A stretch of 24,000 nt of DNA from Rouxiella aceris (GCF_012933545.1 NZ_JAADJU010000005.1:324525-348524), one strand, 5' to 3'; counted from the stretch's first letter, positions 9,533-15,170 are shown. The notes: generated from the letters alone by a model not told the origin. A program made the numbers and translations.

Positions 9533-9571
9533 TTATAACGATGATTGCCCTTTGTGGCCCGGAGAATCAGC

Positions 9572-10207
9572 ATGTATGTTCCCCCGCCGTTTCGCGAAAA
9601 CCGCACCGAAGTGCTTTACGATCTGATTGCTCACTATCCCCTCGGGACGCTGGTCAGCCAGACTGACGGGCAACTGGATGCCATGCATCTGCCGTTTGAG
9701 ATTAACCTTGCCGACAACGGCACGGCCACCCTGCTGGCCCACGTGGCGCGCGCCAATCCAATCTGGCGCGAAGTGGCCAACGGCAGCGACGTGCTCATCG
9801 TGTTTCGCGGCGGTGATGCTTATATTTCCCCGAACTGGTATCCGAGCAAACAGCAAACGCATCGTCAGGTACCCACCTGGAATTATCGCACAGTCCATGT
9901 GCGCGGGCAGATTACTTTTCGCGATGACCTGCCGTTTCTGCATGATGTTCTCACCAGGCTGACTGCACGACAAGAAGCCACGCACACGCTGCCCTGGCAA
10001 ATCGGTGATGCCCCCGAGGACTATATCGCCGGTATGCTCAAGGCGATTGTCGGGGTAGAGATCACCATTAGCGAGATCGTTGGCTGCGTTAAGCTCGGGC
10101 AAAATAAAAACCAACAAGACCTGCAAGGGGCAGCAAACGGCGTTATTGAACAGGGTAATCTGATCATTGGCGAAGCCATGCTGGCGGGACTTAAAGATAA
10201 AAACTGA
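9572..10207 (+). CDS. paiB: PaiB-family FMN-binding (pyridoxamine-phosphate-oxidase-like) putative transcriptional regulator
   Basis: 211 aa from the ATG at 9572 (GGAGA upstream). MYVPPPFRE......L..LI..YP.GTLV......L.A.HLPF....., H.ARANP.W......VL.VF.G..AYISP.WY.......VPTWNY..VH..G resembles B. subtilis PaiB as recalled. Confidence 0.82.
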   Translation: MYVPPPFRENRTEVLYDLIAHYPLGTLVSQTDGQLDAMHLPFEINLADNGTATLLAHVARANPIWREVANGSDVLIVFRGGDAYISPNWYPSKQQTHRQVPTWNYRTVHVRGQITFRDDLPFLHDVLTRLTARQEATHTLPWQIGDAPEDYIAGMLKAIVGVEITISEIVGCVKLGQNKNQQDLQGAANGVIEQGNLIIGEAMLAGLKDKN

Positions 10208-10258
10208 GGTCAGGTGGAGGTATTGCGGCAACGGCCATCCTGTGCCGTTGCCGAGGGT

Positions 10259-11104
10259 TTATAACACCTTGTCCAAAAACTGCTGTGTACGTGAGTGTTG
10301 TGGCCGCTCCAACACCTGTGCGGCGCTGCCGCTTTCTACAATACGACCCTCCACCATAAATACCACCCGGTCGGCGACCTGACGGGCAAAACCGATTTCA
10401 TGGGTTACCACCACCATCGTCACGCCGGAGCGGGCCAGCTTTTTAATGACTTCCAGCACTTCGCCCACCAGTTCGGGATCCAGCGCCGAGGTCGGTTCAT
10501 CAAATAACATCACTTTCGGGTTAAGGGCCAACGCACGGGCAATGGCGATGCGCTGCTGCTGTCCACCGGAAAGATGCCGTGGCCACGCCTGCGCCTTGTC
10601 TCGCAAGCCGACGGTATCAAGCAAGGCATAGGCCTGGGCAATGGCCTGTTTGCGGCTGTACAGTCGATGGACAATCGGCGCTTCGATGATGTTATCCAGT
10701 ACGGTCATATGTGGGAACAGATTGAAGTTCTGAAAGACATAACCGACCTGGGTGCGCTGTTTAAGGATCGCCCGTTCTTTTAACTCATAAAGTGTATTGC
10801 CTTTACGCCGGTAGCCGACGTAATCGCCATCTATCTGAATAAAACCTTCATCTACCCGCTCAAGATGGTTAATGGTGCGCAACAAGGTTGATTTTCCGGA
10901 CCCGGAAGGGCCGAGGATCACCGTTACCGTGCCAGGTTCAATGGTCAGGCTGACGTTATCCAGCGCCTTGTAGTTACCGTAGTATTTGCTGAGATTACGA
11001 ATGGCAATGCGTCCGGCAAGTTGTCCAGGCTCTGCCGTCAGGCGTGGTTGTTCTGCCTGCCGCGGGGTCGGACGCTTAACAAAGAGATCAAAAGCTTCTG
11101 ACAT
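10259..11104 (-). CDS. Amino-acid-type ABC transporter, ATP-binding subunit
   Basis: Walker [11 protein letters not shown]-loop, signature [15 protein letters not shown], Walker [12 protein letters not shown] and H-loop VVVTHE. The overall pattern is like the GlnQ/ArtP/HisP class. Confidence 0.92.
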
Positions 11105-11121
11105 AAGGCATCACTCCGTTT

Positions 11122-12036
11122 TCATGGTCGGGCCGTGCGCCATTGACGCAGGCGTTGCAGGGTTGTCGGTGCGATATGGCGTATTGCCCCGCGCGAAAAA
11201 TAGCGTTCGACATAATATTGCAGTATCGACAGGACGGTGGTGATCAGCAGGTACCAGACGGTGGCCACCATCAGCAACGGAATAACCTGTTGCGTGCGGT
11301 TGTAGATCACCTGCACGGTATAGAACAGTTCCGGCATCGATAAGACATAAACAATGGATGTGCCCTTGGCCAGGCTGATCACTTCGTTAAAGCCAGTGGG
11401 TAAAATAGCGCGTAGCGCCTGCGGTAAAATAATGCGCAAGGTGCGACGCCAGGCGGGTAATCCCAGTGCCGCTGCGGCTTCTTGTTGCCCATGATCGACA
11501 CCGATAATTCCGCCACGGATAATTTCGGCGGTATAGGCAGATTGCACCAGCGATAACCCCAGTACCGCCACCGAAAATTGATCCAGCAGATCGACGGTGG
11601 AATGACGGAAAAATTCAATCGAGGTAAAGGGAATCCCCAGGGACAGGCTGTCGTATAAATAAGAGAAGTTATAGAGAACGATAAGCACCAGCAGCAGCGG
11701 CAATGAGCGAAACAGCCAGATATATCCCCAGGCCAGAGCGCTTAATAGATAGGACTTTGATAAGCGCGCCAACGCCAGCAAGGTGCCAAAGATAATGCCA
11801 AACAGGGTGCCCAGCAGTGTCAGCAGCAGCGTTTTACCAAGACCGGCGAGGATCACCGGGTCAAAAAACCACTGGCGAAATACTCCCCATTCCCAACGCG
11901 GGTTGGTGGCAATGGATTGCACAATGGCCAGCAAAATAAACAGGGCAAAAAAAGCCGCCAACAGGCGCAGCGGATAGCGTGCCGCCACCACCTTTAATGG
12001 CCGATCATCAGCGTCATATTTATTGATATCACTCAT
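11122..12036 (-). CDS. Amino-acid-type ABC transporter permease (HisM/GlnP/ArtQ class)
   Basis: 304 aa from the ATG at 12036. It carries the EAA-type loop motif ...YTAEIIRGGI..V..GQ.EAA.ALGL........I.LPQA.R..LP. The start was chosen because it overlaps the GNAT stop by 8 nt, which suggests translational coupling. The further-upstream part of the ORF is Cys/Arg-rich and not protein-like. Confidence 0.88.
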   Translation of the reverse strand: MSDINKYDADDRPLKVVAARYPLRLLAAFFALFILLAIVQSIATNPRWEWGVFRQWFFDPVILAGLGKTLLLTLLGTLFGIIFGTLLALARLSKSYLLSALAWGYIWLFRSLPLLLVLIVLYNFSYLYDSLSLGIPFTSIEFFRHSTVDLLDQFSVAVLGLSLVQSAYTAEIIRGGIIGVDHGQQEAAAALGLPAWRRTLRIILPQALRAILPTGFNEVISLAKGTSIVYVLSMPELFYTVQVIYNRTQQVIPLLMVATVWYLLITTVLSILQYYVERYFSRGAIRHIAPTTLQRLRQWRTARP

Positions 12037-12559
12037 AAGCCTGCTCCCGGTGCGCGGTCTGCGGCAGGCTGTCGGGCGACAGTAGCTTGATAAACGGCAA
12101 GCGTCCGTCATAAGGCGGCAGCGAGTAGCTTTCTGGATCGCGCTGGGTGTCAAACTGCGGTTGATAGTGCAAAGAGAGGTAGAGCCTGACCGCCTCGGGT
12201 TGCCGGAAACCGGTGGTCAGAAACAGCCGACGATAACCCAGGTTCAAAGCCAGTTGTTCCAGTTGCCGGACCACTTTTTGCGCCAGCCCCTGACGGCGCA
12301 GCGAGGTATCGGTCCAGATCCGTTTTAGCTCGGCAGTCTGCTCGTCGTAACGTTTAAACGCCCCCATGGCAATGGGGCGTCCTTGACGCAACAGCACAAT
12401 AAACACCCCGTCTGGCGGGGCATAAACGTCTACTGATTCGGCCTCTTGCTCGCCAAAATAGTCGCCGTAACGGGCACGATATTCGCCAAACAAACCGGCA
12501 ATAACGGCCGCAATCAGCGGGTCATCAGCGCGGGTGTGAATAAAGGTATCCTGGCTCAT
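12029..12559 (-). CDS. GNAT-family N-acetyltransferase embedded in the transporter operon
   Basis: 176 aa from the ATG at 12559 (GGAGGAG upstream). The acetyl-CoA motif A region is ...ELKRIWTDTSLRRQGLAQKVVRQLEQLA...GYRRLFLTT (R-x-x-G-x-A/G pattern). Confidence 0.82.
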   Translation of the reverse strand: MSQDTFIHTRADDPLIAAVIAGLFGEYRARYGDYFGEQEAESVDVYAPPDGVFIVLLRQGRPIAMGAFKRYDEQTAELKRIWTDTSLRRQGLAQKVVRQLEQLALNLGYRRLFLTTGFRQPEAVRLYLSLHYQPQFDTQRDPESYSLPPYDGRLPFIKLLSPDSLPQTAHREQAYE

Positions 12560-12576
12560 AAGGTCTCCTCCGTCGA

Positions 12577-13497
12577 TCAATCGCCAAGGCCTGGCGGGTT
12601 AATGGTGGAGTGCTCAATTTTTTCCACGCTCTCTCCCCAACGGTCTAATACCTGCAGGTAGCTGCCGTTGGCAATGGCATTATTAAGCGAGGCCTGTACC
12701 GCATCGACCAAGCCGTTGCCCTTTTTAAGGGTGACCGCAATATTGGCGGTTTTTGGCCAGCCGCCGGGTACAACCCCTACCAGCCGGGTATTGCCGCTGA
12801 GTTTGGCTTTATAGGCACCGGTGACATTGGGGCCAAAGGTGGCATCGGCGCGACCGGACTGTAGCGCCAGCGTCGCAGCGGCATCATCAGTGACATACAG
12901 TGGCTGGAAGGGCGCCAGTCCTTTGGCCTGGTTCTCTTTATCCCAGGCGAGCAAAATCGCCTCCTGATTGGTGCCGGAACCGACAATAATGCGCTTACCG
13001 GCTATATCTGCTGCGGCGTTGATGGCGGTGATTTTGCTGCCGGTTTTTACATAGAAACCCAGGGTGTCCTGCCGGTAGGTGGCAAAATCAAATTTGGTTT
13101 TTCGCTCTTTGGTGACGGTTATATTGTAAATCGCTGCATCATATTTTCCTGAAGTCACCCCCAGCGGCCAGTCCTCCCAGGAGGAGGGCACCAGCTTGAG
13201 TTTTAACCCCAGACCGTCGGCGACCAGACGGGCAATATCCGCCTCACTGCCGATCACCGTTTTATTGTCACGGGCAAACAGTCCGAACGGCGGTGCGCTG
13301 CCCAATACGGCTACGGCCACGGTTAAGGTTCCGGGTTGTACAAATGAAAAGTTGGCCGGAATTTTAGCGGCAGCCTCGGCATTTTTTGCCGTGTGGATCG
13401 GCGTCTCGTTGGCGATCAAATCAATACCCGACGCCGCTTGCGTCAGCGGGGAGAAAGCCAGTAAAGCGGCGATAGTTAACTTTGCGCGATGCACCAT
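12577..13497 (-). CDS. ABC transporter periplasmic substrate-binding protein (family 3, polar amino acid type)
   Basis: 306 aa with a signal peptide (MVHRAKLTIAALLAFSPLTQAAS). It has family-3 SBP features (...GLFARDNKTVIGSEADIARLVADGLGLKLKLVPSSWEDWPLGVTSGKYDAAI...) and is the first gene of the operon. Confidence 0.85.
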   Translation of the reverse strand: MVHRAKLTIAALLAFSPLTQAASGIDLIANETPIHTAKNAEAAAKIPANFSFVQPGTLTVAVAVLGSAPPFGLFARDNKTVIGSEADIARLVADGLGLKLKLVPSSWEDWPLGVTSGKYDAAIYNITVTKERKTKFDFATYRQDTLGFYVKTGSKITAINAAADIAGKRIIVGSGTNQEAILLAWDKENQAKGLAPFQPLYVTDDAAATLALQSGRADATFGPNVTGAYKAKLSGNTRLVGVVPGGWPKTANIAVTLKKGNGLVDAVQASLNNAIANGSYLQVLDRWGESVEKIEHSTINPPGLGD

Positions 13498-13847
13498 TAT
13501 TATTTTTTATCCTGTAATTATTATTGAATAAGGGGGACTGGCACTATTGCCGAGCGCGGATGTTAAGTAAAACAACAAAATTAACTATTCAAATAAATAA
13601 AATGAAAATGACTATCGCAATGAGTGTTGCGGAAATTTTATTGCCAGCGGGATGTAAAAATATAAATGATGAGGTGTTCTCGCTTGCCGTTAGAAAAATA
13701 GCAGCATAGGAAAGATGATTTTTCTATTTAGTCCCGCCGCGCTTTTATGGAATTCTTTTTCCTTCGTGTTTGCCAATTTGCTGCCAATTGGCGAGCAAAG
13801 GCTGGCTGCGTATTGTCGCCAGCCCGTCCGCCATAAGGGATCCCGTA

Positions 13848-15170
13848 ATGAGTAACCGCAAAAAGAGTATTAAATTAGGCCTGATGTTGCACGGTGCAGG
13901 TGGTCATATGAATTCATGGCGCCATGAAAAAGCCCCGGCCGATGCCAGCGTAAATTTCCCCTATTTCCGTGAACTGGCGTTACGCGCCGAGGCGGCAAAC
14001 TTTGATTTTTTGTTTGTCGCCGATGGTTTGCATATTAATGAAAAATCGCTGCCTCATTTTCTTAATCGGTTTGAACCTATTGCGCTATTGTCCGCATTGG
14101 CGGCGGTTACCCAGCGTATTGGCCTGGCGGGCACCATTTCTACCTCTTATAGCGATCCTTTTACCGTGGCCCGCCAACTGGCTTCGATCGACAATATCAG
14201 TCAGGGGCGCGCCGGGTGGAATGTGGTGACCTCGCCGCTGGCCGGTTCAGCCAAAAATTTTGGCAAAGCGCATCCTGAACATGCCTTGCGTTATCAGATT
14301 GCCGAAGAGTATATCCAGGTAGTACAGGGATTATGGGACTCCTGGGAGGATGATGCCTTTATTCGTGACCGGCAAAGCGGGCAATTTTTTGATGCCGACA
14401 AGCTGCATAAACTTAATCATCAGGGGCAGTTTTTTAACGTTGAAGGTCCGCTGAATATTCAGCGTTCACCGCAGGGACAGCCGGTGATCTTTCAGGCCGG
14501 CGCATCCGCTGCCGGGATTGCACTGGCGGCCCGATCTGCCGATGCGGTATTTACCAATGCGCGCACGCTTGATGAGGCCGCACTCTACGCTGATAAATTG
14601 CAGCATCAGGTGCAGGAGCAGGGACGACAGCCGGTGGGTATCTTCCCCGGTATCAGCCCGATCGTCGGGCAAAGCATAGAGCAGGCGGAAGCAAAATATC
14701 AGTATCTGTTGTCGCTGATCTCCGTTGATGATGCGCTGGCCTATCTCGGCCGCTTTTTCGATCACCATGACTTTGCGCAATATCCCCTGGATGGTCCTTT
14801 CCCTGAGTTGGGCGATCTGGGGCAAAACAGCTTCCGTTCTACCACCGATGAGATCAAACGGCGGGCAAAAGAGCAGAATCTCAGCCTGCGCGAAGTGGCA
14901 TTTCAAACCACGCTGCCCAAAGGGGAGTTTTTTGGTACCCCTGAGCAGGTGGCTGATACCCTGATCCGCTGGGTGGAGCAGGGCGGTGCCAGCGGTTTTA
15001 TTATCAGCGGGCCGGTACTGACCGAGGCCCTTGACGATTTCACCCGCCTGGTATTGCCGGTGCTGGCTGCACGCGGCTATTGGCATCCGAGTACCGAGAG
15101 TGTCACCCTGCGCCAGCGTCTGGATATTCCCTTTAAAAATAATCGCTATAGTAAAAAAACGGCGGCGTAA
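13848..15170 (+). CDS. LLM-class flavin-dependent monooxygenase, NtaA/SnaA/DszA/SoxA subfamily
   Basis: 440 aa from the ATG at 13848 (AAGGGA upstream). ...[18 protein letters not shown]......., FDFLFVAD........, ...[38 protein letters not shown]... is characteristic of this subfamily. It is divergent from the ABC operon across a 350-bp AT-rich region. Confidence 0.87.

Follow-up and report, generated by a model that had tools for sequence, protein, structure and literature searches.

A sulfur-poor importer, acetyltransferase and flavin monooxygenase cluster of Rouxiella aceris is probably a reduced, split locus for Cmo-type S-alkylcysteine salvage

A cluster of five genes was identified between positions 10259 and 15170 of a 24,000-nucleotide stretch of the Rouxiella aceris genome (contig C20, NZ_JAADJU010000005.1, 324525-348524), which is called the window here and from whose first nucleotide window positions are counted. 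The host genome comprises 5.37 Mb in 24 contigs, with a G+C content of 51%. The cluster encodes an ATP-binding cassette (ABC) importer of the polar-amino-acid type, a GNAT N-acetyltransferase and a luciferase-like monooxygenase (LLM) dependent on reduced flavin mononucleotide (FMNH2), and none of the five proteins contains cysteine. It is probably a reduced and split version of a Cmo-type S-alkylcysteine salvage locus, serving to scavenge sulfur under limitation; the locus is read in this way because its LLM falls in the CmoJ clade and because related loci hold either a full operon or a cmoO gene 5' of the divergent LLM. In the Cmo pathway, SnaA N-acetylates the S-alkylcysteine, CmoO sulfoxidises it, CmoJ cleaves the resulting N-acetyl-S-alkylcysteine sulfoxide, and a deacetylase finishes the process (PMC10863075). 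The five genes are as follows.

10259-11104, minus strand: ABC transporter ATPase, 281 aa, no Cys, 4 non-initiator Met; last gene of the minus-strand operon
11122-12036, minus strand: polar-amino-acid-type ABC permease, 304 aa, no Cys, 2 non-initiator Met
12029-12559, minus strand: GNAT N-acetyltransferase, 176 aa, no Cys, 1 non-initiator Met
12577-13497, minus strand: family-3 periplasmic substrate-binding protein, 306 aa, no Cys, no non-initiator Met; first gene of the operon
13848-15170, plus strand: NtaA/DmoA-family FMNH2-dependent LLM, 440 aa, no Cys, 2 non-initiator Met

The Cys and Met counts of the first-pass annotation, a reading made from the DNA sequence by itself, were all reproduced: the five proteins comprise 1,507 aa with 0 Cys and 9 non-initiator Met. 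Based on genome averages of 1.01% Cys and 2.38% non-initiator Met (4,163 predicted genes), the probability of finding no Cys in 1,507 aa is 2.4e-7 and that of finding nine Met or fewer is 1e-7; Cys plus Met amount to 0.60% in the cluster versus 3.4%. The genome-wide comparison which that annotation had proposed ranked the cluster first of 4,077 five-gene windows for lowest Cys plus Met, and four of these windows are free of Cys. The ssuEADCB operon, used as a positive control (its SsuD was confirmed by TIGR03565 with 636 bits), ranked fifth and is thus less sulfur-poor than the cluster. The depletion is not explained by protein class. Among its 25 paralogues in the genome the permease contains the least sulfur, the binding protein ties for the lowest sulfur content among 10 family-3 binding proteins, and the ATPase is third among 125 ABC ATPases, behind SsuB and the ATPase of another sulfur-poor cluster. 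With Cys and Met far under both the proteome and the paralogues, the five proteins form a sulfur-sparing set, the borders of which coincide exactly with the five genes: the flanking major facilitator superfamily gene has 16 Met. LsrK (10 Cys) and XylE (7 Cys), cited earlier as proteins of the same window which are not depleted, were confirmed as such. The depletion of the cluster is the strongest in the genome, and is matched only by that of ssu and of other LLM/ABC scavenging clusters.

The same property is kept in the orthologues. Across about 25 related loci from many genera, each transporter and LLM component has a Cys content of at most 0.17% and a Met content of 0.27-1.24%. The pooled matches of binding-protein orthologues contain 0 Cys in 10,754 aligned residues, with 0.27% Met; both types of LLM described below contain less than 0.1% Cys and 0.44% Met, and the permease and ATPase no more than 0.04% Cys and roughly 1.2% Met. 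The least depleted component is the M20 deacetylase found in relatives, with 0.38% Cys.

Two further sulfur-poor clusters were observed in the R. aceris genome and rank 2 and 7 among the five-gene windows, respectively. One (C20:126662-134039) encodes a peptide-type ABC importer, an LLM and a 373-aa protein; the other (C1:375750-388510) encodes the fourth NtaA-family paralogue of the genome, a 528-aa binding protein without Cys or Met, and several amino-acid or MetQ-like importers.

The zero Cys count depends upon the start sites, and those of the first-pass annotation were upheld for all five genes by a gene finder trained on the host genome, which uses codon usage and ribosome-binding sites. 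Longer alternatives begin at TTG 12153 for the permease, adding 4 Cys, and at TTG 13770 for the LLM, adding 2 Cys. Neither is supported: orthologue alignments begin at the shorter starts, the permease extension falls within the GNAT gene, the sequence 5' of the LLM ATG is not conserved, and the LLM is identical to a public protein cluster of 440 aa. The minus-strand genes are separated by a 17-nt gap, an 8-nt overlap and a 17-nt gap, in this order; the overlap between the GNAT and permease genes, noted from the outset, is real (12029-12036), the permease ATG overlapping the GNAT stop codon.

The LLM has the fold and family signature of the NtaA/DszA-type two-component enzymes, matching PF00296 (Bac_luciferase) with E 1.3e-49 and TIGR03860 with 504.6 bits against a cut-off of 279.7. 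Among PDB sequences it matched 3sdo, a Burkholderia "nitrilotriacetate monooxygenase" (555 bits), and B. subtilis YtnJ, which is CmoJ (496 bits, E 7e-148); matches to DszA (251 bits), DmoA (231 bits) and ethylenediaminetetraacetate (EDTA) monooxygenase (189 bits) were weaker. The genome holds four NtaA-family paralogues. The window LLM is 54% identical to the enzyme encoded on contig C18 and 44% identical to that on contig C5; the C18 enzyme is the nearest to YtnJ (570 bits), and the C5 enzyme scores 348 bits to it.

A phylogeny of 119 LLMs was constructed with FastTree, without B. subtilis YtnJ and YxeK themselves. Two enterobacterial clades were recovered, each with a support of 1.0: a C20 type, which includes the window LLM, and a C18 type. 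The C20 type groups with sequences from Agrobacterium, Burkholderia and Xanthomonas and from one alphaproteobacterial locus (support 0.98), the latter carrying the same GNAT and transporter, and this group joins a Bacillaceae clade of cmo context (support 0.994). The proteobacterial and Bacillaceae members joined to the C20 type sit beside cmoO-like genes, and the C5 LLM branches outside all of the CmoJ-side groups. Based on these groupings the window LLM is therefore a CmoJ-clade paralogue and not a yxe-context one. Its place with YtnJ/CmoJ and the cmoO-adjacent LLMs rests on the 496-bit match and on supports of 0.98-1.0, YtnJ itself not being in the tree. The phylogenetic check proposed earlier, which might have put the enzyme among aminocarboxylate monooxygenases, thus placed it on the CmoJ side (496 bits for CmoJ versus 189 for EDTA monooxygenase), and the C20 type is a second enterobacterial clade of CmoJ paralogues. 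Since the B. subtilis YxeK, YtnJ, SnaA and YxeL sequences were not in the comparison, this placement draws upon the bit scores to PDB sequences and upon Firmicutes loci known by their gene context. Two of these are complete cmo clusters as judged by Pfam: that of Neobacillus (L044) encodes a small LLM, glutaredoxin, binding protein, GNAT, M20 protein and FMN reductase, and that of Listeria (L035) an FMN reductase, glutaredoxin, small LLM and GNAT. Both also hold permeases, an ATPase and a binding protein, and the M20 assignment is Pfam-confirmed in L044.

In all 20 enterobacterial loci inspected, genes for the binding protein, GNAT, permease and ATPase adjoin an NtaA-family LLM gene, the GNATs being 51-77% identical and the transporter proteins 61-87% identical (ATPases 69-84%). 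A cmoJ-like LLM of the C18 type stands next to the transporter and GNAT in 14 of these loci, and also in Citrobacter youngae (L067), in an Enterobacteriaceae metagenome-assembled genome (L063) and on a megaplasmid of Pantoea soli. Ten of the 14, together with the latter three, carry a co-directional series of cmoO-like LLM, M20, cmoJ-like LLM, binding protein, GNAT, permease and ATPase genes, and this full operon usually includes a second binding protein. The remaining four (L014, and L020 to L023 in part) deviate from this series, the cmoO-like or M20 gene being lacking, divergent or in another position. For the genes of the full operon, which is uncharacterised, RefSeq gives generic names throughout.

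The layout of the window, with a divergent LLM gene of the C20 type (79-88% identical), was found in the other six of the 20 loci and in Kalamiella (L053). A cmoO-like gene lies directly 5' of the C20-type LLM gene in L016, L017, L019 and L053, and an M20 gene is present in L013, L016 and L019. An adjoining cmoO is absent from the window, from its congener L015, and from L013 and L018. The closest named orthologues of the LLM are from Rouxiella and Ewingella.

Several observations were made on individual relatives. The full operon of Pantoea soli (L118, plasmid NZ_CP032703, 163648-171257) has eight genes and lies on a non-mobilizable megaplasmid of 557 kb, and partial DNA matches were found on several other Pantoea megaplasmids. 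In L019 (11706-13999) tblastn recovered both the C20-type LLM gene and the cmoO-like gene in several separate segments each, a pattern suggestive of frameshifts and decay; the cmoO-like gene of L023 (12614-13500) is likewise split. Matches on Citrobacter freundii plasmids were rejected as an unrelated amino-acid ABC transporter. A paper on Pantoea ananatis and Allium was set aside, the NtaA-family gene there occurring only within the HiVir cluster.

The remaining proteins were assigned from Pfam and NCBIfam models. The ATPase matches PF00005 (ABC_tran; E 2.5e-37), its best NCBIfam models being of the TcyN and EhuA types, all under their cut-offs; the permease matches PF00528 (BPD_transp_1), with a cystine permease model as its best NCBIfam match (129 bits, cut-off 300); and the binding protein matches PF00497 (SBP_bac_3; E 1.3e-24). 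In NCBIfam, every transporter protein scores below the cut-offs of all named equivalog models, of which the cystine models come nearest. The GNAT matches PF00583 (Acetyltransf_1; E 2.4e-15). Its similarity to GNATs of the SnaA/YxeL type is confined to a stretch of about 40-55 residues of the common GNAT core: against the GNAT of the Neobacillus cmo cluster a 40-residue local match of 26 bits was obtained, against that of the Listeria cmo cluster none, and against the GNAT encoded on C18 a short local similarity at most. No paralogue of it was found in the host genome, and the SnaA-type GNAT of the genome sits not at this locus but on C18. The window GNAT represents a lineage distinct from SnaA and YxeL which would fill the acetyltransferase role. 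Its orthologues occur in 83 of 401 species and 34 of 178 genera of the GTDB family sampled, and two genomes from a different family of that order also carry one; the fuller arrangement is thus common among Enterobacterales.

Alignment of six intergenic regions revealed two conserved blocks between the divergent transcription units. These and two further elements bordering the LLM gene are as follows.

13543-13580, minus strand: promoter-like element of the transporter operon, TTTTGTTGTTTTACTT (13580 to 13565), 16 nt, AATAGT (13548 to 13543)
13725-13756, plus strand: second conserved block, TATTTAG-N11-TTTTATGGAATTCT, 5' of the LLM gene and, in relatives, 5' of the cmoO-LLM pair
13767-13824, plus strand: GC-rich leader segment with two stable hairpins, about 70 nt, just 5' of the LLM start codon
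15189-15214, plus strand: strong intrinsic terminator 3' of the LLM gene, with an 11-bp stem and a T run

In the sense of the transporter operon, the consensus of the first block in the six regions is TTTTGTTGTTTTAC(A/T)T, 16 nt, AATAGT, which is compatible with a -35 element (TTTACT; 13566-13571 in the window), a 17-nt spacer and a -10 element (13543-13548). Allowing two mismatches, the promoter 16-mer has 13 matches in the whole genome, one of which lies 61 nt 5' of the start of a cmoO-like gene on C18, in the same orientation; about 0.001 matches are estimated to occur by chance in the region of some 300 bp upstream of that operon. When 493 kb of loci were searched at the same stringency, 17 of 18 matches stood ahead of the leading gene in a transporter, LLM or cmoO unit, and a same-orientation 16-mer precedes the first gene in 15 related loci. 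It was not found at ssu by the strict motif search, and one group of type-B genomes lacks it at the loci concerned. The shared motif suggests that the window locus and the C18 operon are co-regulated. The second block is unique in the genome at up to three mismatches, its 14-mer by itself being too common to inform.

The hairpin leader is absent from the orthologue of the congener L015, where the alignment shows a gap, and the 91-nt leader segment folds at -33.8 kcal/mol. It has no repeat elsewhere in the genome and no match in the related loci. It could be an attenuator or an insertion scar; a remnant of cmoO was also considered and rejected, as it is not recognisable as such.

The C18 operon (C18:145846-148793, minus strand) consists of three genes, for a cmoO-like LLM of 332 aa, a SnaA-type GNAT of 188 aa and a cmoJ-like LLM of 447 aa. 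All three proteins are sulfur-poor, the GNAT having neither Cys nor non-initiator Met, and it is 45% identical to the GNAT of the Listeria cmo cluster. The operon has no transporter of its own. A Comamonas locus (L069) was observed to hold homologues of all three genes within 21 kb, not as one operon.

A third locus (C5:70759-82086) is of the yxe type and encodes a binding protein, permease, ATPase, molybdopterin oxidoreductase, PrpD/YxeQ-like protein, M20/YxeP-like protein, GNAT (36% identical to a SnaA-type GNAT), class-I lyase and divergent LLM; its proteins are not sulfur-poor. The class-I lyase is 2SL-like. The yxe pathway acts upon S-(2-succino)cysteine through YxeL, YxeK or the 2SL lyase, and YxeP (PMC9706529). 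The survey in question described 2SL and YxeK as alternatives, and the C5 locus holds both a 2SL-like lyase and an NtaA-family LLM.

Neither an M20 deacetylase nor a flavin reductase is encoded in the window. Candidates for these functions elsewhere in the genome are three M20 paralogues (on C5, C2 and C1), which are 41-46% identical to the cmo deacetylase, and SsuE (on C19), the closest homologue in the genome of the cmo-cluster FMN reductase, at 44% identity.

We infer induction under sulfur limitation and a pathway as follows. The ABC importer would take up an S-substituted L-cysteine or its sulfoxide, which the embedded GNAT would N-acetylate. The CmoJ-type LLM, with FMNH2 most likely supplied by SsuE and with O2, would then split the N-acetyl sulfoxide at its S-alkyl C-S bond, a reaction which for CmoJ-type enzymes gives a sulfenate and an aldehyde, and the N-acetylcysteine released would be deacetylated by one of the three M20 amidohydrolase paralogues. 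Sulfoxidation could be contributed in trans by the CmoO of the C18 cmoO-snaA-cmoJ operon, or might be unneeded if ready-made sulfoxides are imported.

Purifying selection acts on all five genes, their ratios of nonsynonymous to synonymous substitution (dN/dS) being 0.03-0.13 against L015 and L013; these values are rough because dS is saturated. Near-exact matches to parts of all five genes, and to a neighbour, were found among short contigs of three metatranscriptome studies.

Several points weigh against assigning the locus to Cmo-type salvage. The genes for CmoO, deacetylase, glutaredoxin and flavin reductase are missing from it, and the pathway consequently needs partners in trans. The binding protein scores far under the cut-offs of the cystine, lysine/arginine/ornithine and glutamine binding-protein models; the GNAT is orthologous to neither SnaA nor YxeL, which leaves context alone to indicate its substrate; and B. 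subtilis YxeK is absent from the tree. The tie of expression to sulfur supply is likewise a deduction: the metatranscriptome contigs show only presence in RNA libraries, and no CysB or Cbl site, of which the first-pass annotation had expected one in the divergent control region, was recognised there, no CysB/Cbl consensus having been applied.

The strongest alternative is a self-sufficient locus for ready-made S-alk(en)ylcysteine sulfoxides of the plant methiin type, in which importer, GNAT and direct cleavage by the LLM would suffice and the loss of cmoO would be adaptive. The lack of cmoO beside the C20-type LLM gene in four loci fits this, as do the intact state of the five genes under purifying selection and the origin of the named close orthologues in Rouxiella, Ewingella, Erwinia, Pantoea and Kalamiella. 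These genera are largely plant- or soil-associated. However, the C18 cmoO with the same promoter motif has been kept, so that supply in trans is equally possible; on balance this explanation seems rather unlikely. About as tentative is the wider proposal that the C20-type LLM, the non-SnaA GNAT and the importer form a distinct CmoO-independent route for preformed sulfoxides or other S-conjugates, co-ordinated with the C18 operon by an undescribed regulator which recognises the TTTTGTTGTTTTAC element. If true, plant-associated Enterobacterales would run two CmoJ paralogue pathways side by side, each with its own substrate range.

Three other explanations are considerably harder to sustain. The content of the locus is superficially that of the yxe/scm pathway of YxeK, YxeL and YxeMNO, namely LLM, GNAT and ABC importer, and the published definition of a yxe locus asks for three or more out of five components, YxeK, YxeL, YxeMNO, YxeP and YxeQ, in a cluster (PMC9706529). 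In the window only the importer class matches, M20 and PrpD genes being absent, and a separate yxe-type locus already exists on C5, whose LLM lies outside the CmoJ clade holding the window LLM and whose GNAT is unrelated to that of the window; that the window locus is the enterobacterial yxe counterpart is thus highly improbable. A catabolic unit unconnected with sulfur, acting on aminocarboxylates of the nitrilotriacetate/EDTA type or on another amino-acid derivative, with the depletion incidental or serving, for example, oxidation resistance, would agree with the family name NtaA/DmoA of TIGR03860 and with the generic RefSeq names. It is very doubtful in view of the distance to EDTA monooxygenase, of a depletion which is not a property of protein class and has its match in ssu and the LLM/ABC scavenging clusters, and of the synteny with cmoO and M20 deacetylase genes in relatives. 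Finally, the locus might be a decaying remnant which, without cmoO and deacetylase, no longer contributes to sulfur nutrition: genes of its relatives are missing here, L019 shows a fragmented LLM gene and a fragmented cmoO, and the hairpin-rich insertion in the LLM leader is specific to this genome. All five reading frames are nevertheless intact, the low dN/dS values were obtained against two relatives which likewise lack an adjacent cmoO, and the sulfur depletion and promoter motif are retained, which leaves decay with little to recommend it. The Cmo-type salvage reading is in turn supported by the conserved depletion, the CmoJ homology and the operons of relatives, and with it the original idea of a sulfur-economised locus for S-substituted cysteines.

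Two features next to the cluster were also examined. A PaiB-like FMN-binding gene (9572-10207) was rejected as a part of the locus, as it adjoins the cluster in none of the relatives. An open reading frame of 232 aa lies antisense to it (9533-10231) and is longer than that gene; it was taken as spurious since the codon-usage gene finder kept the PaiB-like gene instead.

These results propose a specific and testable function for genes which RefSeq calls "LLM class flavin-dependent oxidoreductase", "GNAT family N-acetyltransferase" and "amino acid ABC transporter", and which occur in about one fifth of the enterobacterial species sampled. The new elements are the reduced divergent layout, the second clade of CmoJ paralogues, the non-SnaA GNAT, the three-locus arrangement in one genome and the shared promoter element. 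The Cmo pathway of Enterobacterales would rely on an acetyltransferase of another lineage and on CmoJ paralogues from two clades, and may be divided over several loci with one promoter motif. The known chemistry is unchanged; the findings point to S-substituted cysteines as a sulfur source for plant- and soil-associated enterobacteria. Depletion of Cys and Met marks the exact limits of a sulfur-scavenging unit and also picks out other such units in the genome.

No match to the locus was found in 5,426 complete E. coli genomes by megablast and blastn, and literature searches found no characterised enterobacterial system of this kind, in agreement with the earlier statement that E. coli and Salmonella are not known to have a characterised counterpart. 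The analogy drawn from the beginning with B. subtilis operons stands for salvage by N-acetylation and an LLM and for the ytmI (Cmo) lineage, but not for the yxe lineage, given the tree and the separate C5 locus. The B. subtilis ytmI-ytnM operon encodes SnaA, TcyJKLMN, CmoO, CmoI, CmoJ/YtnJ, RibR and a deacetylase (PMC10863075). Like it, the window has a CmoJ-clade LLM, a polar-amino-acid ABC importer and a GNAT; in its relatives a cmoO-like LLM and an M20 deacetylase are present as well. Unlike it, the window lacks cmoO, glutaredoxin, deacetylase and flavin reductase, has one permease and one binding protein where B. subtilis has two of each, employs a GNAT from a non-SnaA lineage, and transcribes its LLM gene divergently, this LLM belonging to the second enterobacterial clade of CmoJ paralogues. 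With the yxe/scm system it shares the logic of acetylation, cleavage and deacetylation by means of LLM, GNAT and ABC importer; its LLM, however, lies outside the yxe-context lineage, its GNAT is unrelated, and YxeP and YxeQ are lacking. With ssuEADCB and tauABCD it shares the extreme Cys and Met depletion and the pairing of an FMNH2-dependent LLM with an ABC importer, but it differs in the LLM subfamily, in the importer class and in the added acetyltransferase. It also resembles the full enterobacterial cmo-like operon of Pantoea soli (NZ_CP032703) and Citrobacter youngae, with orthologous binding protein, GNAT, permease and ATPase and the same depletion. That operon has a co-directional LLM gene of the C18 type together with cmoO and deacetylase genes, whereas the window has a divergent LLM gene of the C20 type and neither helper; the compact layout without a deacetylase is thus as it was first described, and is best refined to a reduced form of this fuller operon.

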